This document shows positions 18,552 to 64,000 of a stretch of DNA of 64,000 nucleotides, piece by piece. Every line of letters begins with the position of its first letter. Within the stretch, counting starts at the first letter, position 1. The DNA comes from Nibricoccus sp. (GTDB lineage Bacteria; Verrucomicrobiota; Verrucomicrobiia; Opitutales; Opitutaceae). Position numbers and translations under genes: made by a program. The notes under the pieces are model-generated. The model saw only the letters and a program-made list of their open reading frames with translations. It was not told where the DNA came from and made no database searches. The stretch covers positions 2,368,001 through 2,432,000 of the forward strand of contig JASGHG010000001.1 of assembly GCA_047602425.1 (NCBI GenBank), written 5' to 3'.

Positions 18552-18702
18552 ACAAAAATCCAAAGAACGAACAGATCGTGGAGAGCGATTTGTTTCACCT
18601 CAACAGCAATTCCCAAAAATTATATGGAAGTGGAAATCCTTCGTGAAATCAGCTCGGCGATAGCCAGGGGACATTTTTCACAAAAAACTTCTCCAGTAGT
18701 CG

Positions 18703-19614
18703 TCACTTTAGCTGTAGAACTCTGCGTAGTTCTGCGACCAGATGAGCGGCACCAGGACGAATCGCGACAAGGCGCGGATTCCAAACGAGCACGATGGGAC
18801 GTTTCAACTGCTCGAGGATCTTGGACTCGATCACGACGTAGTCCACGGGCGCGAGGTCGGTCAATGCTAGCTTTGGCAAGATGGCGGCAAAGTGGCCCGA
18901 GCGAACTGCACTCAGTGCGTGAGGGAACGATTGGCAAGCGATGGTGGGAGCGAAAGCCGCGCCGCATTCCTCAGTTAGTGCACGAAGTTTTTGTGCGAAT
19001 TGGCCGTCGGTTGTTTGGGCGACGAGCGGGACTTTGGCTAGAACCTCTTCCAGCGTGAGCTGTTGAACTCGTGATACGAGTTTGCGGGGAACGACAGCCA
19101 CAAATGGAACATCTCCCAATGGTGCCGACTTGAGGCCTTCGCCAACCGCGTCGCGGCGGATCAGGCCGAAGTCGATGCGGCCATCGTTCAGTTGCTGGAC
19201 GATTTCGTTCGTGCGGTGATTGTAGGTAGAGAATCGCATCGGCGTTTTTCCGTGTGAAACTTGGCCGAGCCGTGGGAGCACTAACCATTGAAGCAGGTTG
19301 TCGCCGGCTGCTATACTGTACTCGACGCAGCCCGCATGGCATTCCGAGCGGAAATCCTGTAGCGATCGTAGTTGGTTGCGGGCGAGTTCTGCCAGGCGTG
19401 CGCCTTGAACGGTGAGTTTGAGGATTTTTCCCTGCCGCTTAGTGACTTCGACGCCAAAGAATTCAGAGAGCTCGCGCAATTGACGGCTATATTGGCTCTG
19501 GCGAATGGGATCGCCAGGAGCTGCTTGGGCAATGCTGCCTGCGTCCTGAACTTCAACCAAGACCTTGAGTCGGTCGAGGGATAGACCGCGTTCTGCGAAG
19601 AGAGTGTCAAACAT
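18703..19614 (-). CDS. LysR family transcriptional regulator (copy 1)
   Basis: GSIAQAA..QSQYSRQLRELSEFFG HTH, LTVQG, IDFGL; divergent from the array. Confidence 0.88.
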   Translation of the reverse strand: MFDTLFAERGLSLDRLKVLVEVQDAGSIAQAAPGDPIRQSQYSRQLRELSEFFGVEVTKRQGKILKLTVQGARLAELARNQLRSLQDFRSECHAGCVEYSIAAGDNLLQWLVLPRLGQVSHGKTPMRFSTYNHRTNEIVQQLNDGRIDFGLIRRDAVGEGLKSAPLGDVPFVAVVPRKLVSRVQQLTLEEVLAKVPLVAQTTDGQFAQKLRALTEECGAAFAPTIACQSFPHALSAVRSGHFAAILPKLALTDLAPVDYVVIESKILEQLKRPIVLVWNPRLVAIRPGAAHLVAELRRVLQLK

Positions 19615-19797
19615 GACTACTAAGTCAGGTATCCTGAGTAATCATGTATGGCAAGACTTCTCACGATCGGGTAAAGTCTGCCCCGTCAACTGAGCCGGGA
19701 TTTAAAAATCACGAGAAATATTTTAAACACCTCTTGATTTTTGAAACCCCGGATCCGTTGTAACTCTTCGAACACTCATTCGTCTCAACCTTCTGCC

Positions 19798-19953
19798 ATG
19801 AATTCCACACGACAAATAAAATCAACGACCCTCCGGTTAGCGGAGAGGCATTGGTCGTGCGGCAAACAGACTGCCAAGATGACCATGCGTCGAGGTTTGG
19901 AAAGTTTCCGACCCGACTATGCGAATATTAACCAAGGAAGTGGTGTAACCTGA
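19798..19953 (+). CDS. Putative attenuator leader peptide (51 aa, all 20 amino acids)
   Basis: ORF conserved in both copies, ends 25 nt before a terminator hairpin; last codons contain GGAAGTGG, complementary to the terminator 5' arm. Confidence 0.65.
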   Translation: MNSTRQIKSTTLRLAERHWSCGKQTAKMTMRRGLESFRPDYANINQGSGVT

Positions 19954-19978
19954 GCAACGACTTTACGTAGACTCAAGG

Positions 19979-20007
19979 AACCCACTTCCCTCAGAAGTGG
20001 GTTTTTT
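19979..20007 (+). terminator. Intrinsic terminator / attenuator hairpin
   Basis: AACCCACTTC-CCTCA-GAAGTGGGTT followed by a T run; identical in copy 2. Confidence 0.8.
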
Positions 20008-20153
20008 CATGCCTGAAAAGCCGCTTCTGGGATCCGAGCAAGACTCGTTTTTCCAAGTTTCAAGCGGCTTCACTGCTGAGCCCAGGTCAATCAGCCAACG
20101 TCCGCACAAAATCCCGCGGCCGTCCAAACCACTCGCAAAGTGATAGGGCCGGA

Positions 20154-20173
20154 GGTGTGTGTTCTTTTTTGCG
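20154..20173. repeat. Left arm of 20-bp inverted repeat bracketing tRNA array 1
   Basis: GGTGTGTGTTCTTTTTTGCG is the exact reverse complement of 24610-24629. Confidence 0.9.
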
Positions 20174-20336
20174 AATGCAGGAGCCGAAACAAGCTCCTGC
20201 ACTAATATATCAAGATGCGGTGCGCTTAGATGGCGTTAAACGGCGATGCCGGCCGCATTTTCAATTTTCCCGCGCACGAGCTAAAGACCGACAGTGTTGT
20301 TATATTTGTTGTGAGGTCACAGCTCCGGCGCGAAAA

Positions 20337-20413
20337 CGCCTTGTCGTCTAACAGCATAGGATCCCGGAATTTCAAACCGAGGGATGGGGGTGCGAATCCC
20401 GTCGAGGCGACCA
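20337..20413 (+). tRNA. tRNA-Glu(UUC)
   Basis: CGCCTTG/CGAGGCG stem, loop ATTTCAA, CCA; weak anticodon stem. Confidence 0.7.
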
Positions 20414-20521
20414 TTTTGTTCGAACAAGCGCCGGTTCTTAGTCCGAGACCGGAGTGCGCAGTCCCCATCGGATTTCCCGCGAGCCAGTCGGCGGCCAATG
20501 CCGGCAGGGGAATATTTCCAT

Positions 20522-20595
20522 GCGTGTGTGGCGTAACAGCAACGTGCCGGTCTGCCAGTCCGGAGTTCCGAGTGCGATCCTCGGCATGCGCACCA
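20522..20595 (+). tRNA. tRNA-Gly(GCC)
   Basis: Cloverleaf, loop CTGCCAG, CCA. Confidence 0.8.
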
Positions 20596-20602
20596 TTTTC
20601 AT

Positions 20603-20693
20603 GCGCCGGTCCCCATAGCAGCGATTGGTCCAGACTTTTAATCTGGAGAGCCGCAACGCTCCAACGGGGGTGCAAGTCCCTCTCGGCGCACCA
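20603..20693 (+). tRNA. tRNA-Lys(UUU) anticodon with long variable arm
   Basis: CCAGA-CTTTTAA-TCTGG, variable arm GAGC-CGCAAC-GCTC, CCA. Confidence 0.75.
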
Positions 20694-20713
20694 ATTTAAT
20701 AGATACAATTTAC

Positions 20714-20791
20714 GCACGTCGAGGGAGCCAGTGAACCCGGCTGCCTGCAAAGCAGTGTTTCAGCACGGTGCGACACCGTGGACGTGCTCCA
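20714..20791 (+). tRNA. tRNA-Cys(GCA)
   Basis: Loop CTGCAAA, U73, CCA. Confidence 0.82.
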
Positions 20792-20799
20792 TTTCATTT

Positions 20800-20874
20800 G
20801 GGGATATGGCCGAGTTAGTAAGGCATCCGCCCTGCAAGCGGACCATGAGGGTGCGAATCCCTCTGTCTCCACCA
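20800..20874 (+). tRNA. tRNA-Ala(UGC)
   Basis: G3:U70 pair, loop CCTGCAA, CCA. Confidence 0.82.
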
Positions 20875-20912
20875 ATCTTTCCCCCGGTTTTGCGCGAGTG
20901 GGCCGGGTTCAA

Positions 20913-20987
20913 GCCTGAGAGGTGTTGATAGATACACGACCGTCTTCCAAGCGGATGTAGCCGGCGCGATACCGGCCTCGGGCACCA
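20913..20987 (+). tRNA. tRNA-Gly(UCC)
   Basis: Loop CTTCCAA, CCA. Confidence 0.78.
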
Positions 20988-20994
20988 TTTTTAT

Positions 20995-21072
20995 AGCAGG
21001 ATGGAGGAGCGGCCGTCCTCACCAGCCTCATAAGCTGCGAGATCGCTGGTTCAAATCCAGCTCCTGCTACCA
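20995..21072 (+). tRNA. tRNA-Met(CAU), initiator-like
   Basis: Loop CTCATAA, canonical GG D-loop and TTCAAAT T-loop, CCA. Confidence 0.82.
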
Positions 21073-21078
21073 TTTCAT

Positions 21079-21153
21079 ACGGACGTGGCAGACAAGCAAT
21101 GCAGCGGTCTCCAAAACCGCCTTATGGGGGAGCGATACCCTCCGTCCGTGCCA
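21079..21153 (+). tRNA. tRNA-Trp(CCA)
   Basis: GCGGT-CTCCAAA-ACCGC, G73, CCA. Confidence 0.82.
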
Positions 21154-21250
21154 ATTTGCAATATGAAGAGTAACACTTCGCCGAGGGCGAAGGACGAGTA
21201 AAAGTCTCGTTGAAGCAATGTGCGGCTCCGCGTTCAGCGGGGCTGTATCT

Positions 21251-21326
21251 GGAGGTTAGGCCGATCTAGTGATGGCACGTGGTTGAAGCCCACGAGAGCG
21301 CGGCGCAAAACCGCGAGCCTCCACCA
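21251..21326 (+). tRNA. tRNA-Phe(GAA)
   Basis: CGTGG-TTGAAGC-CCACG, CCA. Confidence 0.8.
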
Positions 21327-21334
21327 ATTTTCAT

Positions 21335-21410
21335 CGGGGTGTAGCGTAGCAGCCAACGCGCTCGGCTTGGGACCGAAAGATCGCAGGTGCAACTCCTGTC
21401 ATCCCGACCA
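21335..21410 (+). tRNA. tRNA-Pro(UGG)
   Basis: CGGGGTG start, loop CTTGGGA, CCA. Confidence 0.85.
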
Positions 21411-21416
21411 GTTTTC

Positions 21417-21635
21417 CAGGTGTGTGGCCCAGTCAGCGGGGCACCGGCCCGTGACGCCGGGGACGGAGCGAAGCGGAGATGGGGCCGCCGATAAGCGGAG
21501 GGCGTCATCCCCGAGCGTAGCGAGCCAAATGGGTGCAATTGACTCGTATTCGACAAGCGGATACTCGGGCCTTCGGCCCGCACCTGCGGTGCGCCGTTCC
21601 GCGTAGGAACCACGCTCCACCCACCCACCTGACCA
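21417..21635 (+). pseudogene. tRNA-His(GUG) interrupted by two palindromic insertions (21464-21527, 21540-21619)
   Basis: Removing the insertions essentially restores the uninterrupted copy at 58069-58144. Confidence 0.75.
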
Positions 21636-21639
21636 TTTC

Positions 21640-21716
21640 GCTCGTGGAGGCGAAGTAGTCGAGGCAACCCTCTGTCTGAGGGGAGTAAGCCGGTGCGAGT
21701 CCGGTCGCGAGCGCCA
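21640..21716 (+). tRNA. tRNA-Asp(GUC)
   Basis: Loop CTGTCTG, G73, CCA. Confidence 0.75.
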
Positions 21717-21723
21717 ATTCTAT

Positions 21724-21800
21724 CGAGGCGTAGCCAAGCAGCTAAGGCAGCTGGCCTACACCCAGCCATTCCGGGGGTGCAAGTCCCTCCGCCTCGACCA
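21724..21800 (+). tRNA. tRNA-Val(UAC)
   Basis: GCTGG-CCTACAC-CCAGC, CCA. Confidence 0.8.
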
Positions 21801-21806
21801 TTTGAT

Positions 21807-21881
21807 TCTGGAGTAGTTCAGCAGCAGAACGCCTGGCTGTTAACCAGGATGTCGCAGGGGCAGAACCTGCCTCCAGAGCCA
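21807..21881 (+). tRNA. tRNA-Asn(GUU)
   Basis: CCTGG-CTGTTAA-CCAGG, G73, CCA. Confidence 0.85.
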
Positions 21882-21885
21882 TTTT

Positions 21886-21961
21886 CGTCGGCGAGACGGC
21901 CAGTGAAGTCACCTGCCCGACATGCAGGCAACGCTCGGTGCGACACCGAGGCCGACGACCA
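21886..21961 (+). tRNA. tRNA-Val(GAC)
   Basis: CCTGC-CCGACAT-GCAGG, CCA. Confidence 0.75.
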
Positions 21962-22055
21962 TTTCCTTAGTTGTGTCGGAGGATTGGGCACAGCGAGGAG
22001 ATCAACTGGCCCGGCCACAGGCCGGAGACGAGTGCCTCCGCTCCGCCAGCACCAT

Positions 22056-22130
22056 CCGGACGTAGTGTAGCAGCAACATACTCGCCTCGGACGCGAGTGA
22101 CCGAGGGTGCAAATCCCTCCGTCCGGACCA
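22056..22130 (+). tRNA. tRNA-Pro(CGG)
   Basis: CTCGC-CTCGGAC-GCGAG, CCA. Confidence 0.82.
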
Positions 22131-22136
22131 ATTTTT

Positions 22137-22211
22137 TGCGGTGTCGTCTAACACGCAGGACAGCGGACTTTGAATCCGTTTGTGGAGGTGCGAATCCTCC
22201 CGCCGCAGCCA
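22137..22211 (+). tRNA. tRNA-Gln(UUG)
   Basis: GCGGA-CTTTGAA-TCCGT, U1-A72, CCA. Confidence 0.85.
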
Positions 22212-22215
22212 GCCT

Positions 22216-22355
22216 TGGTCACAAGCTTTAATAGTTAAGCCGCCGGCTCTTAACCGGCAGAACTCGGAGCATTTGACTCGCGCATACGCGCTCGGGGCCT
22301 TGCCCCTAACCTGCTGGTTAGCCGCTCCGCGTTGCTCCGCCGAGGCGGCCCACCA
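22216..22355 (+). tRNA. tRNA-Lys(CUU) with 66-nt T-loop insertion (22274-22339)
   Basis: GCCGG-CTCTTAA-CCGGC; T stem CTCGG/CCGAG flanks the insertion. Confidence 0.7.
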
Positions 22356-22356
22356 T

Positions 22357-22433
22357 GGCTCGATGGCGCAGCATGTAGCGCAGCTCCCTCATAACGAGAA
22401 GGTCGCGGGGTGCGAATCCCGCTCGAGCCCCCA
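22357..22433 (+). tRNA. tRNA-Met(CAU), elongator-like
   Basis: GGCTCGA/TCGAGCC stem, loop CTCATAA, CCA. Confidence 0.72.
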
Positions 22434-22440
22434 TTTTCAA

Positions 22441-22528
22441 CGGGACGTGGCAGAGCAGCAAATGCAACGCACTGTAAATGCGTCGGCTTTACAGCCTATC
22501 ACTGGTGCAAGTCCAGTCGGCCCGACCA
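22441..22528 (+). tRNA. tRNA-Tyr(GUA)
   Basis: ACGCA-CTGTAAA-TGCGT, long variable arm, CCA. Confidence 0.85.
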
Positions 22529-22643
22529 CTTTCTCGGTCTCATGGGTGCCAACAACTCATGCTTTTGTCGGTTAAGGTTAAAACCGGCCAGCAGTTCTGG
22601 TGGATCAGAGCAATCGTTAGGTTTTTGCGTAAAAAACCAGTTT

Positions 22644-22719
22644 GCCTCTTAAGCATAGTTAGCGATGCAACTTCTTGGTAAGGAGTAGATGGTCGGCGCA
22701 CATCCGACAGGAGGCTCCA
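22644..22719 (+). tRNA. tRNA-Thr(GGU)
   Basis: Loop TTGGTAA, GCC start, CCA. Confidence 0.8.
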
Positions 22720-22726
22720 ATTTCAT

Positions 22727-22884
22727 GCGAGCGTGGCGGAATAGCATACGCGCCGGCCCGAGATGCCGGTGAGCGCAAGCTCATGAGGGTGCGATTGACT
22801 CGTATTCGACGAGCGAATACTCGGGCCTGCGGCCCATGCCTGACGGCATGCCGTTCCGCTTCGCTTCACCCTTCGTTCGCACCA
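22727..22884 (+). tRNA. tRNA-Leu(GAG) with 73-nt T-loop insertion (22796-22868)
   Basis: CCGGC-CCGAGAT-GCCGG, variable arm, A73, CCA. Confidence 0.72.
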
Positions 22885-22890
22885 ATTTAT

Positions 22891-22980
22891 CGCGGCGTGG
22901 TTGGAATTAGTATACACAGCGGTCTCAAAATCCGCTGGGCTTCAACGCCCGTGCCGGTGCGAGTCCGGTCGCCGCGACCA
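22891..22980 (+). tRNA. tRNA-Leu(CAA)
   Basis: Loop CTCAAAA, variable arm, CCA. Confidence 0.82.
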
Positions 22981-22981
22981 T

Positions 22982-23069
22982 GCGGCTGTGTGTGGAAAAG
23001 TAGACCAGGCGGTTTTAAAAACCGCTGCGCCTCTGGCGCGTGGGCGTGCAAGTCGCCCCAGCCGCACCA
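22982..23069 (+). tRNA. tRNA-Leu(UAA)
   Basis: GCGGT-TTTAAAA-ACCGC, variable arm, CCA. Confidence 0.8.
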
Positions 23070-23078
23070 ATTTGATAT

Positions 23079-23165
23079 CGGCAAGTGATGGAACAAGCAT
23101 ACACGCGAGTCTCAGAAACTCGAGGGCGCGAGCCTGTGCAGGTGCAAATCCTGTCTTGCCGACCA
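23079..23165 (+). tRNA. tRNA-Leu(CAG)
   Basis: CGAGT-CTCAGAA-ACTCG, variable arm, CCA. Confidence 0.82.
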
Positions 23166-23174
23166 TTTTACTAT

Positions 23175-23251
23175 CGCCCTGTCCTCTAACGAGCACAGGA
23201 GACCCGTTTCTCAAATGGGCAATGTGGGTGCAAGTCCCATCGGGGCGACCA
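23175..23251 (+). tRNA. tRNA-Glu(CUC)
   Basis: CCCGT-TTCTCAA-ATGGG, CCA. Confidence 0.8.
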
Positions 23252-23255
23252 TTGA

Positions 23256-23347
23256 CGCCGCGTAGTTCAAAGTGAACCGTCCGCCTTATAAACGGAATCG
23301 CGCTAGATGAGCGCCAGGCCCGGGAGCGTTACCCGGCGCGGCGACCA
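23256..23347 (+). tRNA. tRNA-Ile(UAU) with long variable arm
   Basis: TCCG-C-CTTATAA-A-CGGA, variable arm GCGCT-AGATG-AGCGC, A73, CCA. Confidence 0.72.
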
Positions 23348-23351
23348 ATTT

Positions 23352-23418
23352 GGGGCAGTGAGAACAGGGGTACTTCGTTCGAAACACGTCAAACAACACC
23401 TTGTTCATGTTTCTCCTC
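23352..23418 (+). ncRNA. Short Y-RNA-like motif unit
   Basis: GGCAGTGAG..TACTTCG..TTCTCC, shared with the units upstream of TROVE in copy 2. Confidence 0.55.
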
Positions 23419-23425
23419 AATATAT

Positions 23426-23500
23426 GCCTCTTATGCGTAGTTAGCGACGCGCGGCGCTTGTACCGCTGAAAGGCCGGCGCAAATCCGGCAGGAGGCTCCA
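23426..23500 (+). tRNA. tRNA-Thr(UGU)
   Basis: Loop CTTGTAC, CCA. Confidence 0.8.
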
Positions 23501-23504
23501 ATTT

Positions 23505-23579
23505 CTCCCTGTAGTGAAATAGCTATCACACGGCTCTGCGAAGGCCGAGATCCAGGTGCAAGTCCCGGCAGGGGGACCA
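23505..23579 (+). tRNA. tRNA-Arg(GCG)
   Basis: CGGCT-CTGCGAA-GGCCG, CCA. Confidence 0.78.
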
Positions 23580-23587
23580 TTTTTCAG

Positions 23588-23662
23588 CTCTGCGTGGTGA
23601 AATTATTATCATGTCGTGCTTCGAACGCGTCGTTGTGGCTGGGATTCCCGCCGCAGAGTCCA
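23588..23662 (+). tRNA. tRNA-Arg(UCG)
   Basis: Loop CTTCGAA, CCA; T stem imperfect in this copy. Confidence 0.68.
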
Positions 23663-23704
23663 ATCTCGTTGTATCTATGCCGTGGTTTATTGCGGCGATA
23701 TTTT

Positions 23705-23777
23705 CTCCGCGTGGCCGAGAAGCTCAGGCCTCCGCCTTCTAAGCGGATCGACGCAGGTGCAAATCCTGTCGCGGAGA
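23705..23777 (+). tRNA. tRNA-Arg(UCU)
   Basis: TCCGC-CTTCTAA-GCGGA; no encoded CCA. Confidence 0.8.
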
Positions 23778-23783
23778 CTTTAC

Positions 23784-23874
23784 GGAGGCGAAATCGGACA
23801 AGCGTGCCGACAACCGTTTGAAGCGGTCAGGGCGACTGCGTGTCGCTGGGGAGCATGACCTCTCGCCTCCGCCA
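23784..23874 (+). tRNA. tRNA-Ser(UGA)
   Basis: GGAG start, loop TTTGAAG, variable arm, G73, CCA. Confidence 0.75.
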
Positions 23875-23880
23875 ATCTTT

Positions 23881-23966
23881 GGAGAGTAAAGCCGTGAAGC
23901 GCGGCGACCGGTTGGAAGCCGGCTCGGACCTCCGGGTCTGTGGGGCGGAACCACTGCTCTCCGCCA
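23881..23966 (+). tRNA. tRNA-Ser(GGA)
   Basis: Loop TTGGAAG, variable arm, G73, CCA. Confidence 0.72.
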
Positions 23967-23974
23967 AATTTGAT

Positions 23975-24200
23975 GGAGAGTGAATCCGCCGAGGTGCGGA
24001 CACTGTTTCGACGAAGCGAAGCGGAGATGGATCGACCGAAGGTCGACCCGCAGGGTGAGCGTAGCGAATCAAAGCAGATGGATTGCCGGCACAAAGACTC
24101 CGCTTTGTTCGTCGTGTTGCCCGCGTTGCGGGCGCCCACGCGACTACCCCTCGCTTCGCTCAGGGCTGCGCCATCTTCGTGCTGCGCACTCCGTCCGCCA
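23975..24200 (+). pseudogene. tRNA-Ser(CGA) disrupted by insertions at 24012-24071 and 24106-24193
   Basis: Comparison with the intact copy at 62743-62832. Confidence 0.75.
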
Positions 24201-24204
24201 TCTT

Positions 24205-24278
24205 CCTCGTGTAGCTCAAAAGCAGAGCAATCGGCTGATAACCGATCGACGTCGGAGCGTTACCGAATGCGAGGACCA
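24205..24278 (+). tRNA. tRNA-Ile(GAU)
   Basis: ATCGG-CTGATAA-CCGAT, CCA. Confidence 0.82.
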
Positions 24279-24285
24279 TTTTTTC

Positions 24286-24373
24286 GGAGGGTTAATCCCG
24301 AGAGTCGGAAGCCGCGGTGCTAACGCGTGCGGCGGTGAAAGCCGCTGAGGGGCAGGACCTCAACCCTCCGCCA
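24286..24373 (+). tRNA. tRNA-Ser(GCU)
   Basis: Loop GTGCTAA, variable arm, G73, CCA. Confidence 0.72.
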
Positions 24374-24379
24374 TTTTTC

Positions 24380-24488
24380 ATCGCGTGTGCGATTGACTCG
24401 TTTTCGCTAAAGCGAAACTCGGGGCCTTGCCCCGCACCTGCTGGTGCGCCGCTCCGCGCTCGATGAGCGTTGCGCATGCCCGGCAGCA
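24380..24488 (+). pseudogene. tRNA-Gln(CUG) remnant: 5' half missing, T-loop insertion 24394-24474
   Basis: 3' part matches the intact gene at 63007-63080. Confidence 0.7.
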
Positions 24489-24496
24489 TTTTTCAC

Positions 24497-47401: not shown

Positions 47402-47403
47402 GT

Positions 47404-57987: not shown

Positions 57988-58063
57988 CGGGGTGTAGCGT
58001 AGCAGCCAACGCGCTCGGCTTGGGACCGAAAGATCGCAGGTGCAACTCCTGTCACCCCGACCA
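57988..58063 (+). tRNA. tRNA-Pro(UGG)
   Basis: Loop CTTGGGA. Confidence 0.85.
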
Positions 58064-58068
58064 ATTTT

Positions 58069-58144
58069 CAGGTGTGTGGCCCAGTTAGCGGGGCACCGGC
58101 CCGTGAAGCCGGGGAAATGGGTGCAAATCCCATCCACCTGACCA
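58069..58144 (+). tRNA. tRNA-His(GUG), atypical acceptor stem
   Basis: CCGGC-CCGTGAA-GCCGG; A73 and no G-1. Confidence 0.7.
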
Positions 58145-58148
58145 CTCC

Positions 58149-58225
58149 GCTCGTGGAGCCGAAGTAGTCGAGGCAACCCTCTGTCTAAGGGAAGTCAGCC
58201 GGTGCGAGTCCGGTCACGAGCGCCA
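58149..58225 (+). tRNA. tRNA-Asp(GUC)
   Basis: Loop CTGTCTA. Confidence 0.75.
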
Positions 58226-58231
58226 ATTTTT

Positions 58232-58308
58232 CGAGGCGTCGCCTAGTAGCTATGGCAGCTGGCCTACATCCAGCCATTCCGGGGGTGCAAGTCCCTCCGC
58301 CTCGACCA
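58232..58308 (+). tRNA. tRNA-Val(UAC)
   Basis: Loop CCTACAT. Confidence 0.8.
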
Positions 58309-58309
58309 T

Positions 58310-58384
58310 TGCCGAGTAGCACAACAGTAGTGCGACGCCCTGTTAAGGCGCTAGGTGCAAGTGCGAATCTTGCCTCGGCAGCCA
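58310..58384 (+). tRNA. tRNA-Asn(GUU), different sequence from copy 1
   Basis: CGCC-CTGTTAA-GGCG, G73, CCA. Confidence 0.82.
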
Positions 58385-58389
58385 TTTTT

Positions 58390-58465
58390 CGTCGGCGAGA
58401 CGGCCAGTGAAGTCACCTGCCCGACATGCAGGCATCGCTCGGTGCGACACCGAGGCCGACGACCA
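58390..58465 (+). tRNA. tRNA-Val(GAC)
   Basis: Loop CCGACAT. Confidence 0.75.
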
Positions 58466-58559
58466 TGTCCTTAGCTGTGTCGGAGGGTTGGGCACAGCGA
58501 GGAGATCAGCTGGCCCGGCGATAAGCCGGAGACGAGTGCCTCCGCTCCGCCAGCACCAT

Positions 58560-58634
58560 CCGGATGTAGTGTAGCAGCAACACGCTCGCCTCGGACGCGA
58601 GTGACCGAGGGTGCAACTCCCTCCGTCCGGACCA
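58560..58634 (+). tRNA. tRNA-Pro(CGG)
   Basis: Loop CTCGGAC. Confidence 0.82.
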
Positions 58635-58640
58635 ATTTAT

Positions 58641-58715
58641 TGCGGTGTCGTCTAACACGTAGGACAGCGGACTTTGAATCCGTTTGTGGAGGTGCGAATC
58701 CTCCCGCCGCAGCCA
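58641..58715 (+). tRNA. tRNA-Gln(UUG)
   Basis: Loop CTTTGAA. Confidence 0.85.
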
Positions 58716-58719
58716 GCTT

Positions 58720-58859
58720 GGGTCGCAAGCTTTAATCGTGAAGCAGCCGGCTCTTAACCGGCAGAACTCGGAGCATTTGACTCGCGCGTACGCGCTCGGG
58801 GCCTTGCCCCTAACCTGCTGGTTAGCCGCTCCGCGTTGCTCCGCCGAGGCGGCCCACCA
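58720..58859 (+). tRNA. tRNA-Lys(CUU) with T-loop insertion (58778-58843)
   Basis: Loop CTCTTAA; same insertion as copy 1. Confidence 0.7.
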
Positions 58860-58860
58860 T

Positions 58861-58936
58861 GGCTCGATGGCGCAGCATGTAGCGCAGCTCCCTCATAAGG
58901 AGAAGGTCGCGGGTGCGAATCCCGCTCGAGCCCCCA
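58861..58936 (+). tRNA. tRNA-Met(CAU), elongator-like
   Basis: CTCC-CTCATAA-GGAG. Confidence 0.8.
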
Positions 58937-58943
58937 TTTTCAG

Positions 58944-59031
58944 CGGGACGTGGCAGAGCAGCAAATGCAACGCACTGTAAATGCGTCGGCTTCACAGCCT
59001 ATCACTGGTGCAAGTCCAGTCGGCCCGACCA
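58944..59031 (+). tRNA. tRNA-Tyr(GUA)
   Basis: Loop CTGTAAA, variable arm. Confidence 0.85.
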
Positions 59032-59146
59032 CTTTCTCAGTCTCATGGGTGCCAACAACTCATGCTTTTGTCGGTAAAGGTTAAAACCGGCCAGCAGTTC
59101 TGGTGGATCAGAGCAATCGTTAGGTTTTCGCGTAAAAAACCGTTAT

Positions 59147-59222
59147 GCCTCTTAAGCATAGTTAGCGATGCAACTCCTTGGTAAGGAGTAGATGGTCGGC
59201 GCACATCCGACAGGAGGCTCCA
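59147..59222 (+). tRNA. tRNA-Thr(GGU)
   Basis: Loop TTGGTAA. Confidence 0.8.
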
Positions 59223-59228
59223 TTTTAT

Positions 59229-59386
59229 GCGAGCGTGGCGGAATAGCATACGCGCCGGCCCGAGATGCCGGTGAGCGCAAGCTCATGAGGGTGCGATTGA
59301 CTCGTATTCGGCGAGCGAATACTCGGGCCTGCGGCCCACGCCTGACGGCATGCCGTTCCGCTTCGCTTCACCCTCCGTTCGCACCA
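59229..59386 (+). tRNA. tRNA-Leu(GAG) with T-loop insertion (59298-59370)
   Basis: Loop CCGAGAT; same insertion as copy 1. Confidence 0.72.
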
Positions 59387-59392
59387 ATTTAT

Positions 59393-59482
59393 CGCGGCGT
59401 GGTTGGAATCAGTATACACAGCGGTCTCAAAATCCGCTGGGCTTCAACGCCCGTGCCGGTGCGAGTCCGGCCGCCGCGACCA
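59393..59482 (+). tRNA. tRNA-Leu(CAA)
   Basis: Loop CTCAAAA. Confidence 0.82.
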
Positions 59483-59483
59483 T

Positions 59484-59571
59484 GCGGCTGTGTGTGGAAA
59501 AGTAGACCGAGCGGTTTTAAAAACCGCTGCGCCTCTGGCGCGTGGGCGTGCAAGTCGCCCCAGCCGCACCA
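59484..59571 (+). tRNA. tRNA-Leu(UAA)
   Basis: Loop TTTAAAA. Confidence 0.8.
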
Positions 59572-59580
59572 ATTTACTAT

Positions 59581-59667
59581 CGGCAAGTGGTGGAACAAGC
59601 ATACACGCGAGTCTCAGAAACTCGAGGGCGCGAGCCTGTGCAGGTGCAAATCCTGTCTTGCCGACCA
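59581..59667 (+). tRNA. tRNA-Leu(CAG)
   Basis: Loop CTCAGAA. Confidence 0.82.
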
Positions 59668-59676
59668 TTTTTCTAT

Positions 59677-59753
59677 CGCCCTGTCCTCTAACGAGCACAG
59701 GAGACCCGTTTCTCAAATGGGCAATGTGGGTGCGAGTCCCATTGGGGCGACCA
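59677..59753 (+). tRNA. tRNA-Glu(CUC)
   Basis: Loop TTCTCAA. Confidence 0.8.
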
Positions 59754-59757
59754 TTGA

Positions 59758-59849
59758 CGCCGCGTAGTTCAAAGTGAACCGTCCGCCTTATAAACGGAAT
59801 CGCGCTAGATGAGCGCCAGGCCCGGGAGCGTTACCCGGCGCGGCGACCA
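59758..59849 (+). tRNA. tRNA-Ile(UAU) with long variable arm
   Basis: Loop CTTATAA; same as copy 1. Confidence 0.72.
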
Positions 59850-59854
59850 ACTTT

Positions 59855-59922
59855 GGGGTAGTGAGGACAGGGTTACTTCGTTCGAAACACGACAAAACAA
59901 CACCTTGTTCAGATTTCTCCTC
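59855..59922 (+). ncRNA. Y-RNA-like unit 1 (short)
   Basis: GGTAGTGAG..TACTTCG..TTCTCC motif. Confidence 0.55.
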
Positions 59923-59929
59923 AAAATAT

Positions 59930-60004
59930 GCCTCTTATGTGTAGTTATCGACGCGCGGCGCTTGTACCGCTGATAGGCCGGCGCAAATCCGGCAGGAGGC
60001 TCCA
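59930..60004 (+). tRNA. tRNA-Thr(UGU)
   Basis: Loop CTTGTAC. Confidence 0.78.
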
Positions 60005-60009
60005 ATTTT

Positions 60010-60140
60010 CGGGTAGTGAGATCAGGGATACTTCGCCTCCTAAGCGCGTGGTTGTCGGTTCGAGTCCGGCCCTCTCCAAAATTCACGGGGAGGTAGCTCA
60101 ATGGTAGAGCACGTTAAACGCCCTGGCCGGTTTTCTCCCG
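60010..60140 (+). ncRNA. YrlA-like Y RNA, unit 2
   Basis: Motif stem encloses T arm (GTCGG-TTCGAGT-CCGGC), closed acceptor stem, then D arm (TAGCTCAATGGTAGAGCA): permuted tRNA order. Confidence 0.75.
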
Positions 60141-60148
60141 AAACAATT

Positions 60149-60307
60149 TTCTGGGTAGTGAAGGTAGAGATACTTCGCCACCAAAGCGACGCGACCGCTA
60201 TTCCCCGTGCCCGCCGGCAAGCTGGGCTGCGAATACGAGCGCTGGTCCATTGAGCAATCGGTGGATCAGAAGGGCTCTAGGGGAGCTTTGCCTGTTTTCT
60301 CCCAGAA
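60149..60307 (+). ncRNA. Y-RNA-like unit 3
   Basis: TTCTGGG/CCCAGAA closing stem and shared motif. Confidence 0.6.
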
Positions 60308-60312
60308 TAGTT

Positions 60313-60446
60313 TTGGAGGCAGTGAGCGTGCGGATACTTCGGAGAACGCGCTCGCCTAGAGGCGAGAGATTGCAGGTTCAACCCCTGCTCGTGTCGGCAA
60401 CGATACGATGGCGGAATCAAACGCTGCTCGCGACTCTCTCCTCCAA
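60313..60446 (+). ncRNA. Y-RNA-like unit 4
   Basis: TTGGAGG/CCTCCAA stem, shared motif, T arm GCAGG-TTCAACC-CCTGC. Confidence 0.65.
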
Positions 60447-60451
60447 TTCCT

Positions 60452-60602
60452 TTGAAGGTAGTGAGAACGCGGATACTTCTGGTAATGCACGCAAGTGCCA
60501 TGGTTCAAATCCATACACCGCGTTCGGTTTTGGCGCGTTTCACGCGGTCCTGCGGACTCCACCTTCGGTGGCCCCATCTCCGCTACGCTCCGTCTCCTTC
60601 AA
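60452..60602 (+). ncRNA. Y-RNA-like unit 5 (palindromic insertion at 60531-60592)
   Basis: TTGAAGG/CCTTCAA stem, shared motif, T arm ATGG-TTCAAAT-CCAT. Confidence 0.6.
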
Positions 60603-60609
60603 TCAATTT

Positions 60610-60743
60610 TGCGGGTAGTGAGTGTATAGCTACTTCGGACTGAACGGTCGGTGGTTCGATCCCACCTGCGCTTCGGCGCATAGCTCAGTGGTAAGAGCAT
60701 TCAGCGGCCGCAAGGCCGTATCTGTGCACGTAGTTCTCCCGCA
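60610..60743 (+). ncRNA. YrlA-like Y RNA, unit 6
   Basis: T arm GGTGG-TTCGATC-CCACC, acceptor TGCGC-TTCG-GCGCA, D arm TAGCTCAGTGGTAAGAGCA. Confidence 0.78.
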
Positions 60744-60824
60744 TTACCACCGTGTCCCGGCGCTCCGGGTTTGTCTCGCCGCGAGAGATCATCTCGTGGC
60801 CCTAAAAAGAAAAAGGAGGCCATC

Positions 60825-62264
60825 ATGGCCAAGTTCAGTATCCTCAAAGCCCTGTCGCGCGGAAAATCTGCGCCCAACACGGTCAATTTTGAAAACGGTC
60901 GCGCCTACAAGCAGACCGCCAAAGTCGAATTCGTTTCGATTTTGCTCACCACGTTTCTCCAGGAGGAATTTTATCGCACCGAGAAACAAACCACTGCTCG
61001 CATCCGCGAACTGATCACGCAGGTCAACGACCCACTGTTCGTCGCGAAAGGCGCCCTGTATGCACGTAACAAATACGGCATGCGCTCGGTCAGTCACCTC
61101 GTCGCGGGTGAACTGGCCAAACAGGTCAAAGGTGTTACGTGGACGAAACGTTTCTATTCTGAAGTCGTGCGACGACCGGATGACGTCATGGAAACGCTGG
61201 GTTATTACCTTGCGGCCTACGGTCGTCCGATCCCGAACTCCCTTAAAAAGGGTTTGGGTGCAGCACTGGGTCGTTTCGACGAATATCAACTCGCCAAATA
61301 CCGCCGCGACCACGCGGTCTTCAAACTCGTTGACGCAGTAAATCTGGTTCGTCCGGCAGCAACGCCGGCTCTGTCCAAGCTTGTGAAAGGTGAACTCGCT
61401 CCTGCGCAAACGTGGGAGACTAAACTCACGCAAGCGGGTGCGGCTGAGTCAGCCGATGATGTTGCTGAGGCAAAATCTCAGGCGTGGGCACAGCTGGTGC
61501 GTGAGCGCAAGCTCGGCTACCTCGCTCTGCTCCGCAACGTCCGTAATGTGCTGACGCATGCGCCGGAGGTGGTGGACGAACTTTGCGCGCAGCTTGCCAA
61601 TGAGCAGGCGGTGCGCCGTGCGCTCGTGTTTCCGTTCCAGTTTCTGTCCGCCGTTGAAGTGCTGAAGCAGGGCAACCAGCCAGGTACAAACCGCGTGATG
61701 GATGCGCTGAATCAGGCTATCGATTACTCGCTGGCCAACGTGCCGAAGTTCGAGGGTAACACGCTCGTCGCGCTCGACTCCTCCGGCTCGATGGTGGGTC
61801 GTCCGCAGACGATCGGTTCGCTCTTTGCCGCAACGCTGGTGAAGGCAACCGGTGCTGATCTGATGCTTTTCAGTGATGATGCTCGTTACATCACGCTGAA
61901 CCGTCGCGACACCACGCTCACGGCGGCCAACAGCATCCCGTTCATCTCGGGTGGTACGAACTTCAATGCGATCTTCCAGCGTGCGAACCATGCTTACGAT
62001 CGCATCGTGGTCCTGTCCGATATGCAGGGTTGGGTGGGTGGCGGTGCGCCCGTTGCTGCTTTCGCTGCGTATCAGAAGAAGTACGACTGCGCTCCGCGCG
62101 TCTATAGCTTCGATCTGAAAGGTTACGGTACGCTCCAGTTCCCACAGGAACGGGTTTACTGTCTTGCCGGTTGGAGCGATCGCGTATTCGAGGTCATGCA
62201 AAAACTCGATCGCGATCCCGAGGCACTGGTTCACGAAGTCGAGGCAATCTCGCTCGCGGACTAA
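60825..62264 (+). CDS. rsr: Ro60/TROVE domain RNA-binding protein (Rsr)
   Basis: AAGGAGG RBS; N..NGRAY, ARNKYGMRS, FDEYQLAKY, TWET, ALLRNVRN, vWA DSSGSM, GGTN, LSDMQ. Confidence 0.92.
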   Translation: MAKFSILKALSRGKSAPNTVNFENGRAYKQTAKVEFVSILLTTFLQEEFYRTEKQTTARIRELITQVNDPLFVAKGALYARNKYGMRSVSHLVAGELAKQVKGVTWTKRFYSEVVRRPDDVMETLGYYLAAYGRPIPNSLKKGLGAALGRFDEYQLAKYRRDHAVFKLVDAVNLVRPAATPALSKLVKGELAPAQTWETKLTQAGAAESADDVAEAKSQAWAQLVRERKLGYLALLRNVRNVLTHAPEVVDELCAQLANEQAVRRALVFPFQFLSAVEVLKQGNQPGTNRVMDALNQAIDYSLANVPKFEGNTLVALDSSGSMVGRPQTIGSLFAATLVKATGADLMLFSDDARYITLNRRDTTLTAANSIPFISGGTNFNAIFQRANHAYDRIVVLSDMQGWVGGGAPVAAFAAYQKKYDCAPRVYSFDLKGYGTLQFPQERVYCLAGWSDRVFEVMQKLDRDPEALVHEVEAISLAD

Positions 62265-62281
62265 ACGCCTAAATCTCCTAC

Positions 62282-62309
62282 GGAGCCGAACATAGTTCGG
62301 TTCCTTTTT
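62282..62309 (+). terminator. Terminator-like hairpin after TROVE
   Basis: GGAGCCGAAC-ATA-GTTCGGTTCC followed by TTTTT. Confidence 0.6.
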
Positions 62310-62384
62310 CTTCCTGTAGTGAAACAGCTATCACGCGGCTCTGCGAAGGCCGAGATCCAGGTGCAAGTCCCGGCAGGAGGACCA
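62310..62384 (+). tRNA. tRNA-Arg(GCG)
   Basis: Loop CTGCGAA. Confidence 0.78.
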
Positions 62385-62394
62385 ATTTTCAATA

Positions 62395-62469
62395 CTCTGC
62401 GTGGTGAAATTATTATCATGTCGCGCTTCGAACGCGTAGTTGCGGGTGGGATTCCTGCCGCAGAGGCCA
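62395..62469 (+). tRNA. tRNA-Arg(UCG)
   Basis: CGCG-CTTCGAA-CGCG. Confidence 0.75.
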
Positions 62470-62473
62470 TTTT

Positions 62474-62546
62474 CTCCGCGTGGCCGAGAAGCTCAGGCCT
62501 CCGCCTTCTAAGCGGATCGACGCAGGTGCAAATCCTGTCGCGGAGA
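62474..62546 (+). tRNA. tRNA-Arg(UCU)
   Basis: Loop CTTCTAA; no encoded CCA. Confidence 0.8.
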
Positions 62547-62552
62547 CTTTAC

Positions 62553-62643
62553 GGAGGTGAAATCGGACAAGCGTGCCGACAGCCGTTTGAAGCGGTCAGG
62601 GCGACTGTTTGTCGCTGGGGAGCATGCCCTCTCGCCTCCGCCA
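62553..62643 (+). tRNA. tRNA-Ser(UGA)
   Basis: Loop TTTGAAG. Confidence 0.75.
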
Positions 62644-62649
62644 ATCTTT

Positions 62650-62735
62650 GGAGAGTAAAGCCGTGAAGCGCGGCGACCGGTTGGAAGCCGGCTCGGACCT
62701 CCGGGTCTGTGGGGCAGAACCACTGCTCTCCGCCA
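62650..62735 (+). tRNA. tRNA-Ser(GGA)
   Basis: Loop TTGGAAG. Confidence 0.72.
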
Positions 62736-62742
62736 AATGTGT

Positions 62743-62832
62743 GGAGAGTGAATCCGCCGAGGTGCGGACGCTGTTTCGAAAGCAGCTGGATCGGCGATGC
62801 CGGTTGAGGCGCAAGCCCTCCGCTCTCCGCCA
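62743..62832 (+). tRNA. tRNA-Ser(CGA)
   Basis: GCTGT-TTCGAAA-GCAGC, variable arm, G73, CCA. Confidence 0.78.
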
Positions 62833-62837
62833 TTTTT

Positions 62838-62911
62838 CCTCGTGTAGCTCAAAAGCAGAGCAATCGGCCGATAACCGATCGACGTCGGAGCGTTACCGAA
62901 CGCGAGGACCA
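62838..62911 (+). tRNA. tRNA-Ile(GAU)
   Basis: Loop CCGATAA. Confidence 0.8.
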
Positions 62912-62917
62912 TTTTTC

Positions 62918-63005
62918 GGAGGGTTAATCCCGAGAGTCGGAAGCCGCGGTGCTAACGCGTGCGGCGGTAAAAGCCGCTGAGGGGCAGGACCTCAACCCTC
63001 CGCCA
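62918..63005 (+). tRNA. tRNA-Ser(GCU)
   Basis: Loop GTGCTAA. Confidence 0.72.
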
Positions 63006-63006
63006 T

Positions 63007-63080
63007 TGCCGGGTCGTCTAGCAGCAGGACAGCGGTCTCTGAAACCGCGAACGCATGTGCGACTCATGCCCCGGCAGCCA
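63007..63080 (+). tRNA. tRNA-Gln(CUG)
   Basis: GCGGT-CTCTGAA-ACCGC, CCA. Confidence 0.82.
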
Positions 63081-63087
63081 TTTTCAT

Positions 63088-63162
63088 TCTCTGCAAGCAT
63101 AGGCAGCGATGCAGCGGTTTCGTAAACCGCAGAGGCCGGCGCACACCCGGCGCGGAGATCCA
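63088..63162 (+). tRNA. tRNA-Thr(CGU)
   Basis: Loop TTCGTAA. Confidence 0.8.
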
Positions 63163-63277
63163 GTTTTTCAGTCGGTTTTTGGACTGAGGAGTTAAGCGCA
63201 AAAAAGAACACACACCCACGTTGGCTGAGCTGAGCCCAGCGGAGCTGCGCCATTTTCAATTTATCCATTTCGTTCCC

Positions 63278-63913
63278 ATGAACACTAGCATTCTCGACAA
63301 ACCCATCGTCCTGTCGCTTAACCGCGCCTGGCAGGTGATCGGCCACCGTACCGTGAAGCAGGCTCTCGTAGCTCTTAACGGTGGTTCGGCTGGTCTACCG
63401 CCTGCGCTCGGTCTCGACATTGCCTATCCGAAGCTCGACGACGGTGGTTGGAATTTCGACCGCCCGCTTTTCCTCAACCCGCTTCCGTGGGCTGAGTGGA
63501 TCAATCTGCCGGTTCGTGAATTCGACTTCGTTGTCTCAACGCCGCGGATGCAAATCCGCGTTCCCACCGTTATCATCTCGACGCAATACGATCGCATGCC
63601 GATCCGCCTCCCGCGGGTCACGCGTCAGGCGATTTTTGAGCGCGATGGTGGTATCTGCCAATACACCGGCGAATTTGTCGGCAAGAACGGTGGCAATCTC
63701 GACCACGTTGTGCCCCGCGATCGCGGTGGCCGCGACAGTTTCGAAAACCTCGTTTGGGCCAAAAGAGAGGTCAACTCGCTGAAGGCTAATCGCCTGCCGC
63801 ATGAGGCTGGTCTCCGACTGCTCAGACGTCCCAAGGCACCTGCTCCGCTTCCGGCGGCTGCCTCAATTCGTGAAGCGAAACATCCCGACTGGCGCCACTT
63901 CCTCGCACACTGA
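63278..63913 (+). CDS. HNH endonuclease (copy 2)
   Basis: Near-identical protein to 24692-25327. Confidence 0.9.
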   Translation: MNTSILDKPIVLSLNRAWQVIGHRTVKQALVALNGGSAGLPPALGLDIAYPKLDDGGWNFDRPLFLNPLPWAEWINLPVREFDFVVSTPRMQIRVPTVIISTQYDRMPIRLPRVTRQAIFERDGGICQYTGEFVGKNGGNLDHVVPRDRGGRDSFENLVWAKREVNSLKANRLPHEAGLRLLRRPKAPAPLPAAASIREAKHPDWRHFLAH

Positions 63914-63981
63914 AACCCTGCGGTGGGGGAGTGGCCCAGCCGACTCTACGACTCGTCGCCTTTTCCGCAGGGCTAACTTCC

Positions 63982-64000
63982 ATGAACACCGAATCAGCTA
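63982..64000 (+). CDS. Start of sigma factor copy 2 (truncated by window edge)
   Basis: MNTES start and upstream context match 25397. Confidence 0.6.

Follow-up and report, generated by a model that had tools for sequence, protein, structure and literature searches.

A probable leader-peptide attenuator ahead of paired tRNA and RNA-repair cassettes in an Opitutaceae-type verrucomicrobium

Two cassettes and their leader regions

The window analysed here is a stretch of 64,000 nucleotides of Nibricoccus sp. DNA (contig JASGHG010000001.1, positions 2,368,001 to 2,432,000), the whole of which is contained in a host genome of one 5.16-Mb contig. Comparison of the window with itself revealed one cassette in two paralogous copies, A (18560-29128) and B (55119-67715), the second of which extends beyond the window end to ~67,700. 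The cassette consists of a divergent LysR-family gene followed by a tRNA array and the genes for an HNH endonuclease, a sigma factor, two optional proteins and RtcB; copy B additionally carries five Y-like RNA units and rsr within its array, both of which are confined to this copy. On the minus strand between the cassettes, opposite to both arrays, lie NAD/ADP-ribose genes and then a MoxR system. The region is a mosaic in which two paralogous cassettes flank an NrtR operon and a MoxR ternary system. Proteins were identified by Pfam and NCBIfam family scans and tRNAs with ARAGORN. Identity between the two copies is 86-95%; followed along the cassettes it ranges from 75 to 98% and rises to ~100% over the last 2.1 kb (26982-29128 against 65568-67715, L001), a stretch covering a DIP1984-like gene and rtcB, which suggests recent gene conversion or an assembly effect.

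In both copies a leader open reading frame (ORF) lies between lysR and the first tRNA; the differences between leaders A and B are synonymous, and the last codons of the leader are complementary to the 5' arm of a terminator hairpin that follows it.

19798-19953, plus strand: leader ORF A, 51 codons, all 20 amino acids, 39 different codons
19936-19943, plus strand: antiterminator strand A, the last codons of leader ORF A
19980-20007, plus strand: intrinsic terminator A, whose 5' arm is the antiterminator partner
56360-56515, plus strand: leader ORF B, 51 codons, all 20 amino acids, 41 different codons
56542-56569, plus strand: intrinsic terminator B

This arrangement is conserved. Upstream of LysR homologs, 28 of 29 regions contain an ORF of 48-60 codons and then a hairpin and U-tract 48-61 nt past its stop codon, the one exception (G248) being a locus that has no array. 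Across an alignment of 28 rows the antiterminator helix is 97% paired, a value reached in 2 of 500 shuffles, and the terminator has 97.4% of its cells paired, a value reached in none of 500; controls in which the pairings were slid gave 29-60%. In a set of 47 loci, from which the search pattern dropped the window's own two copies, the antiterminator pairing is kept in 46-47. The sole variable pair, placed on a tree of the HNH proteins, is U/A/U at 35 loci, C/G/C at 8, a wobble at 3 and rearranged at 1, and C opposite A never occurs; the C/G/C state, found in two HNH clades, amounts to full three-way compensation. At three loci (L146, L175 and L177) the nucleotide motif is preserved in a different reading frame, indicating that it is the RNA sequence, not the peptide, that is conserved. 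The motif occurs just twice in the genome, at the two cassettes. In one relative (G019) the leader precedes rtcB without an array; of 22 LysR matches of greater distance that were examined, none showed a leader or array within 1.5 kb, and a LysR search of a collection of genome contigs gave no match. When folding of the nascent transcript was modelled with the ribosome absent or at least 12 codons upstream, the antiterminator formed with P>=0.85 in 28 of 28 cases, and no competing anti-antiterminator appeared. Three structural marks of a whiB7-type attenuator are found here: a conserved upstream ORF (uORF), a terminator after its stop codon and an exclusive antiterminator at its 3' end (with one covarying pair).

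The leaders are also richer in amino-acid types than expected. We used 25 of them, having dropped copy B and G005 as near-duplicates, G248 for its lack of a leader and G019 for its lack of an array. With a mean identity of 33%, they contain on average 19.2 types, and 13 contain all 20, against a mean of 16.8 types (2.3% with 20) for random 51-codon windows of this genome's genes, 17.6 types (4.8% with 20) for uniform codons and 17.8+-0.19 types for leaders shuffled by column. Chimeras assembled from blocks, which tolerate misalignment, gave P=0.028, 0.0035, <0.001 and <0.001 for 2, 3, 5 and 8 blocks, and 13 control protein windows (from the sigma factor, LysR and an unknown protein) gave z values of -2.0 to 1.5. 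Among 80 further loci, 44 have the element and terminator, 34 of these pass a strict leader pattern, 16 are new and 13 non-redundant; these 13 leaders contain on average 19.5 types, 8 contain all 20, and chimeras of 2, 3 and 5 blocks gave P=0.13, 0.017 and 0.0003. A control with alternative frames was discarded for this set, being confounded by start context. Rare residues shift between columns, with His occupying 15 columns yet present in 25 of 25 leaders, as expected if every leader must retain one of each. Cys stands in one column in 21 of 25 leaders, and pN/pS is ~0.67.

Several observations weigh against reading these features as a working, breadth-selected attenuator. The two-block chimera test is weak, particularly in the new set, and a first, looser choice of ORFs gave P=0.063 with three blocks. 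The leaders span only ~33 of 45 codon groups, and the loci are related rather than independent; because kinship is outside the breadth model, the P values overstate certainty. The covariation is that of one base pair, representing perhaps two independent events on a tree with an unresolved backbone. In equilibrium folds of the complete transcript the terminator prevails (P>0.8) in 20 of 28 cases, even when free of ribosomes, so that switching would have to be kinetic, and the folding result that a ribosome at the stop codon yields the terminator follows by construction. Eight new loci were missed by the strict pattern, of which three have full leaders, two have 37-codon ATG ORFs and three have none with ATG. 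No public sequencing run contains this strain (20 of 24 rows share 0.07-0.11; best 0.11), and a run labelled as RNA (X20) was rejected as expression evidence since its flat 9.6-33-kb contigs across intergenic DNA are DNA-like.

Contents of the cassettes and of the interval between them

The sequences that surround the leaders and arrays have features in common with rRNA operons.

19649-19677, plus strand: candidate upstream promoter, overlapping the lysR promoter, conserved in the 29-region alignment
19734-19763, plus strand: candidate promoter with TTGA-N20-TTGT spacing, conserved in the 29-region alignment
20020-20153 and 56582-56715, plus strand: conserved structured RNA element of ~130 nt between terminator and array (25-locus alignment and fold)
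20154-20173, plus strand: 5' strand of long-range stem A, with a boxA-like core, pairing with 24610-24629
24610-24629, plus strand: 3' strand of long-range stem A
56716-56735, plus strand: 5' strand of long-range stem B, pairing with 63197-63216

The TTGA-N20-TTGT spacing, read by eye, also occurs twice before the 16S gene of this genome. The loops of the structured element, which matches no Rfam family, have an invariant sequence, and the element could be an antitermination or protein-binding signal. Beyond it a 26-mer, with a core that we take to be boxA-like, pairs with a sequence that lies 36-119 nt upstream of the HNH match in each of 27 cassettes, at a mean energy of -34.2 kcal/mol compared to -20.7+-3.4 for internal windows; in 24 of the 27 the cognate pairing is stronger than the mean of the non-cognate ones. 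A duplex test of the whole segment was uninformative against shuffles, and the 26-mer test was used instead. By analogy with rRNA operons, the ~20-bp stem joining both ends of the array is probably a processing stem.

The arrays and the RNA units embedded in them are as follows.

20337-24571, plus strand: tRNA array A, at least 33 units, five interrupted by palindromic inserts
56987-63162, plus strand: tRNA array B, with the Y-RNA/Rsr block inside
60010-60745, plus strand: five YrlA-like RNA units with a common 5' motif, directly upstream of rsr
60771-62264, plus strand: Rsr (Ro60/TROVE), from family scans
21463-21620, 22260-22340, 22787-22869, 24011-24070, 24380-24475, 58764-58838, 59289-59368 and 60545-60590: palindromic inserts

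ARAGORN predicts 16 tRNA genes in array A (20522-23778) and 22 in array B (57174-63080), together 38 of the 84 in the genome, the remainder being dispersed; a lowered threshold combined with homology gives 33 units in array A and 36 in array B, two of the latter being parts of Y-like RNAs. The original prediction for this DNA, which read it as a single recovery island, had named two full tRNA arrays: two arrays exist, of which B represents all 20 amino acids (its Ser and Asp units partly read by eye) and A is not full. Like the tRNA L-arrays of PMC8421152, the arrays are long, same-strand, non-periodic, supernumerary, patchy in distribution and linked to HNH genes.

Inserts, 60-80 nt long in array A, interrupt the His, Lys-CUU, Leu-GAG, Ser-CGA and Gln-CUG genes of array A and two genes of array B. 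They belong to a family of multi-hairpin palindromic elements of 60-90 nt, placed mostly in T-loops and also in anticodon loops or D-arms, on which our literature search found nothing. A profile of the family has eight matches in the genome, all within the two arrays (none in a reversed-genome control), and members were found in the arrays of 11 of 25 relatives. We rejected the possibility that they are introns on account of their occurrence in both orientations (16 versus 21) and of insert-free alleles in DNA runs of relatives. That the adjacent HNH protein mobilises them is a guess.

A tRNA-like gene at 59759-59849, with a copy in array A, is marked by the anticodon UAU and by the length of its variable arm; it is 92-98% conserved in the arrays of four relatives and could misread AUA. 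Four Ser-type tRNAs (62553-62832 and 62917-63004) have 8-bp acceptor stems and are missed by ARAGORN at its defaults; we presume a resemblance to the published 8/4 tRNAs. The Rfam YrlA model (RF02553), which has a gathering score of 69 bits, gives two of the five Y-like units 40.1 and 31.3 bits, and a joint fold of the five yielded no consensus structure.

The protein genes of the cassettes are listed here.

18703-19614, minus strand: LysR-family regulator of cassette A, divergent (Pfam)
55266-56177, minus strand: LysR-family regulator of cassette B, 94% identical to A (Pfam)
24692-25327, plus strand: HNH endonuclease A (Pfam HNH_4)
63221-63913, plus strand: HNH endonuclease B (Pfam)
25337-26104, plus strand: sigma-70-family factor, FliA/WhiG-like but under that family's cut-off
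26119-27376, plus strand: two optional cassette genes, for a 224-aa protein and a weakly DIP1984-like protein
27601-29146, plus strand: rtcB copy A, split by a one-base gap near 28189
29252-29996, plus strand: metallophosphoesterase, frameshifted near 29360 (tblastn, intact relative, 49-50% identity)

This LysR is present in two copies only in the genome, each heading a cassette, and HNH B is followed beyond the window by sigma B, the two optional genes and an intact rtcB. The 224-aa protein has no match in Atlas. The DIP1984-like gene and rtcB are separated by 220 nt of non-coding sequence (27376-27600), identical in both copies and possibly a structured RNA.

The family scans bore out most of the inventory in the original prediction, namely Ro60/TROVE (Rsr, accompanied in cassette B by the five Y-like units), Tpt1, two HNH proteins, the sigma-70/FliA-like factor, the ADP-ribose erasers (Macro, ADP-ribosylglycohydrolase, NADAR and microbial PARG), the NAD salvage set (NadD, PncA, NrtR, NadE, Prs, PncB and Nudix) and a MoxR conflict system (bpMoxR with bpX0-4). 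Two entries need qualification: RtcB is matched as a family, but copy A is frameshifted and the intact gene lies just outside the window (L001:4126-5721); the metallophosphoesterase, recognised through its intact relative, is frameshifted as well. Apart from its gap, rtcB-A is nearly identical to copy B, and its break may be a polishing artefact within a near-identical repeat. The overall level of assembly error is low, since a probe for it found frameshifts at 0 of 111 loci and flagged rtcB-A as its positive control; its identity filter of 55% lies above the phosphoesterase. Downstream, at 30011-30641, are genes for a ParD-like antitoxin and, as a weak match, an Xre/MbcA antitoxin; no adjacent toxin gene was seen. 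The scanned proteins, which come from the window and the stretch that follows it, include neither RtcR nor RtcA, the rest of the genome not having been searched.

Between the cassettes lie the following.

51675-52289, plus strand: Nudix hydrolase, divergent from pncB
51617-51634, minus strand: candidate NrtR box, a GT-N7-AC palindrome upstream of pncB
45455-51676, minus strand: NAD salvage operon pncB-prs-nadE-nrtR-pncA-nadD
39670-45416, minus strand: ADP-ribose/RNA-end block, encoding PARG, Tpt1, a 130-aa unknown protein, Band-7, an NAD-kinase-like protein, NADAR, ADP-ribosylglycohydrolase and Macro
31747-39499, minus strand: MoxR-vWA-beta-propeller ternary system, bpX4, MoxR, bpX2, bpX0/bpX1 and bpX3 (Pfam)

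A Nudix-winged-helix regulator, salvage genes and the GT-N7-AC palindrome, which is also present upstream of pncB in 3 of 5 relatives and fits the NrtR consensus (PMC2330246), mark the salvage operon as an NrtR regulon. As in the regulons of that paper, for which ADP-ribose is the effector, nrtR stands with pncA, pncB, nadD, nadE and a second prs; unlike those regulons, the operon continues into the block from PARG to Macro, the catalytic motifs of which were read. Phage NARP1 reportedly reconstitutes NAD with a Nampt-like Namat paired with Adps. We rejected a NARP1 reading here, as the enzyme passes the cut-offs for nicotinate phosphoribosyltransferase (462 versus 379 bits) and sits with pncA, nadD and nadE. 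The MoxR system, with its GXXXTAKS P-loop and bpX0-4, fits subsystem 4 of the MoxR-vWA beta-propeller systems (PMC7159879), from which we found no difference. Both bpX0 and bpX1 were matched; there is no vWA match in Pfam and no canonical MIDAS pattern, and the vWA domains of such systems are described as divergent (PMC7159879). A link to RtcB or KptA has no occurrence in that paper.

Distribution of the cassette and linkage of its neighbours

Named relatives of the array-linked HNH protein are mainly Opitutaceae metagenome-assembled genomes and isolates. Among 300 genomes of the family, 59 hold the RtcB clade, with 65 matches of which 6 are distant; 13 hold the close Band-7 block, 11 PncB and a single one the MoxR protein. 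We examined 40 RtcB loci, picked for sufficient flank, of which 23 have tRNAs and HNH and 21 of these 23 also LysR within the stretch. The arrays of relatives range from 1 to ~25 ARAGORN genes, and downstream of their cassettes lie additional genes of RNA repair, the neighbours including RlaP nucleotidyltransferases, a second Band-7 type, phosphoesterases, an R2K ATP-grasp protein and AAA ATPases (the scan of neighbours covered 101 proteins, 98 of them chosen from relatives' neighbours).

The NAD/ADP-ribose genes adjoin the cassette more often than chance. Of the 13 genomes with the Band-7 block, 7 also hold the RtcB clade, compared to 59 of 300 overall; in these 7 the blocks are at most 15 kb apart in two (G105 and G225), 1.2 Mb apart in the complete genome G198 and on different contigs in four. 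In G225 an NrtR-ARH-Band-7 block follows rtcB on the same strand. When loci were anchored on HNH, NAD/ADP-ribose homologs flanked 5 of the 53 that had 7 kb or more of downstream sequence, such genes formed a block of at least three at 1 of the 33 with both flanks, and MoxR stood beside the cassette at 0 of 78. The RtcB clade was not found in four genomes of the same genus, in the complete one of which (G004) the flanking genes map 100-440 kb apart, so that no insertion site can be defined. A survey of gene neighbourhoods, by which the original prediction was to be checked, thus shows a recurring cassette, NAD/ADP-ribose genes beside a minority of copies and MoxR beside none. We take the core to be the tRNA/RNA-repair cassette, the NAD genes to be recurrent but optional neighbours with a regulator of their own, and MoxR to be a passenger; the idea of one island under common regulation thus finds only partial support.

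Genomes with more than one cassette recur: one complete genome has two separate cassettes 3.5 Mb apart (L131 and L187), and a named isolate has one on each of two contigs (L136 and L185). Pelagicoccus-type loci (L188, L190, L191 and L193) have a more distant HNH (52-55%), rtcB in three of four cases, at most two tRNAs and no LysR match, and may represent an ancestral state or a reduction. A further arrangement occurs elsewhere in the class, in another family (L094, L098-L104 and L109): 9 of the 11 genomes of one genus have the LysR clade divergent to an rtcB of a different clade (~24% identity) and show neither leader nor array there; in the remaining two LysR faces another gene, which we take to be UmuD/LexA-like. 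By analogy with RtcR, LysR may be a dedicated regulator of RNA repair.

A proposed attenuation mechanism and its alternatives

From the sequence comparisons above, we consider it likely that the cassette is a mobile spare-tRNA and RNA-repair operon of Opitutaceae-type Verrucomicrobiota under ribosome-coupled transcription attenuation. RNA polymerase would start at the rRNA-type promoter and transcribe a leader of ~51 codons that samples nearly every amino acid. Were a coupled ribosome to translate the leader to its stop codon, it would mask the antiterminator strand, the terminator hairpin would form and the operon would be off; were it to stall earlier, or never to load, the last codons of the leader would pair with the 5' arm of the terminator and allow read-through. 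A cut or uncharged tRNA, starvation, ribosome damage or antibiotics could each cause such a stall, and the product would be tRNAs, Y RNAs, Rsr, HNH, sigma factor and RtcB. The NAD/ADP-ribose operon would be a separate unit, controlled by NrtR, that sometimes settles beside the cassette, its coupling to the cassette being perhaps only metabolic, in that Tpt1 and the erasers would make ADP-ribose and so release NrtR. A more ambitious version, which we advance tentatively and with some doubt, is that of an inducible, rRNA-operon-like translation-rescue operon in which an all-20 leader under selection senses the state of the tRNA pool and directly gates a full set of replacement tRNAs and the repair enzymes (RtcB, Rsr/Y RNAs and often RlaP), LysR serves as a second, RtcR-like sensor, and the NrtR operon is repeatedly recruited to restore NAD used by repair, the whole serving recovery from tRNA-cleaving toxins or defence effectors.

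The original prediction held instead that the 45-kb region as a whole forms a single recovery island, selected and regulated as a unit, that counters tRNA cleavage, ADP-ribosylation and NAD depletion. Every function it named is present, the co-occurrence of the Band-7 block with the RtcB clade and the arrangement in G225 are in its favour, and Tpt1/KptA, Macro and NADAR are tied to RNA repair (PMC9503650). However, the NAD operon is on the opposite strand with its own candidate NrtR box, the attenuator motif occurs at the two cassettes only and we found no shared regulatory motif; together with the low linkage, the absence of MoxR and the distance between blocks in G198, this makes the single island unlikely. 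What survives of it is a recurring tRNA-supply/RNA-repair unit, whose leader suggests a response to stalled translation, with an optional NAD block.

The arrays might alternatively be selfish cargo, spread by HNH, mostly silent and decaying, with leader and terminator merely keeping them silent. Their patchy distribution, the range of array sizes, tRNA genes broken by mobile palindromes, the two frameshifted genes of cassette A and the horizontal transfer of L-arrays beside HNH genes (PMC8421152) are what such cargo would look like, but a silencer needs no conserved ORF, amino-acid-type excess or compensated antiterminator, and in G019 the leader precedes rtcB without an array; we regard this explanation as improbable. 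We would give still less credence to the idea that ribosome position is not the signal, the leader instead encoding a small protein with a function of its own or the RNA acting as a riboswitch, of the T-box kind, that binds a ligand or a tRNA. The few well-kept residues, such as the Cys column, and the pN/pS ratio fit a peptide, a UGG in the antiterminator strand could read a tRNA 3' end, and a conserved structured element follows the terminator; against these stand leaders of 33% identity and variable length, and an RNA motif kept across frame changes. T-box RNAs carry an invariant unpaired UGGN bulge and would not tolerate a change from UGG to CGG. The UGG here is paired and changes to CGG with compensation, and neither T-box nor any other Rfam riboswitch was matched, on which grounds a T-box was rejected. 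It is the ribosome-coupled attenuator that best accommodates these observations.

The closest known relative of such a device is the uORF of whiB7, at which efficient translation leads to the terminator and stalling to the antiterminator, and whose codon content sets what is sensed; that of M. smegmatis encodes 19 of 20 amino acids (10.1101/2023.06.02.543512), and cleavage of a tRNA by a toxin induces whiB7 (PMC10287673). The leaders described here resemble those of whiB7/wblC in being long and compositionally diverse, and would share their logic of termination on complete translation and antitermination on stalling. Unlike whiB7, an actinobacterial system with a transcription factor as its target, the verrucomicrobial leader stands directly before tRNA and RNA-repair genes, and the excess of amino-acid types has been measured here across homologs.

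In the cyanobacterial trn L-array (PMC8421152), as in the cassettes, a long series of supernumerary tRNA genes is linked to HNH and rtcB. In Anabaena the array is induced by translation stress via direct repeats and the ribbon-helix-helix repressor TrcR (PMC8421152, PMC10272220); the architecture seen here is a different one, with LysR, a leader ORF and a terminator. The supplement of PMC8421152 lists one 18-gene array in Opitutus terrae PB90-1, and the string 'attenuat' has no occurrence in its main text. As in the Salmonella rsr-yrlBA-rtcBA operon, which responds to broken tRNA under RtcR (PMC7790460), Rsr, Y-like RNAs and RtcB are found in one operon; Salmonella RtcR is a CARF-domain activator that binds tRNA halves, whereas here five Y-like units lie inside a tRNA array. 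Our literature search, which lay mostly outside subscription journals, found no leader-peptide attenuator for tRNA genes and no account of this cassette.

The most valuable feature of the locus is probably an all-amino-acid attenuator that gates a chromosomal tRNA and RNA-repair operon. How such 'cryptic' arrays are switched on is known for one lineage, the cyanobacteria with TrcR, and attenuation by leader peptides is established for genes that encode proteins. In the survey a conserved core stands apart from NAD genes carried as optional cargo and from a MoxR system that is a passenger unrelated to it, and the chimera statistic offers a general way to detect selection for sensor breadth in leaders. 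If the proposed mechanism is true, a leader lacking one amino acid would not respond to loss of the corresponding tRNA, the supply of tRNA would exert direct negative feedback on tRNA transcription, and a means of sensing tRNA damage, second to and independent of the RtcR known elsewhere, would exist for RtcB/Ro60 operons.

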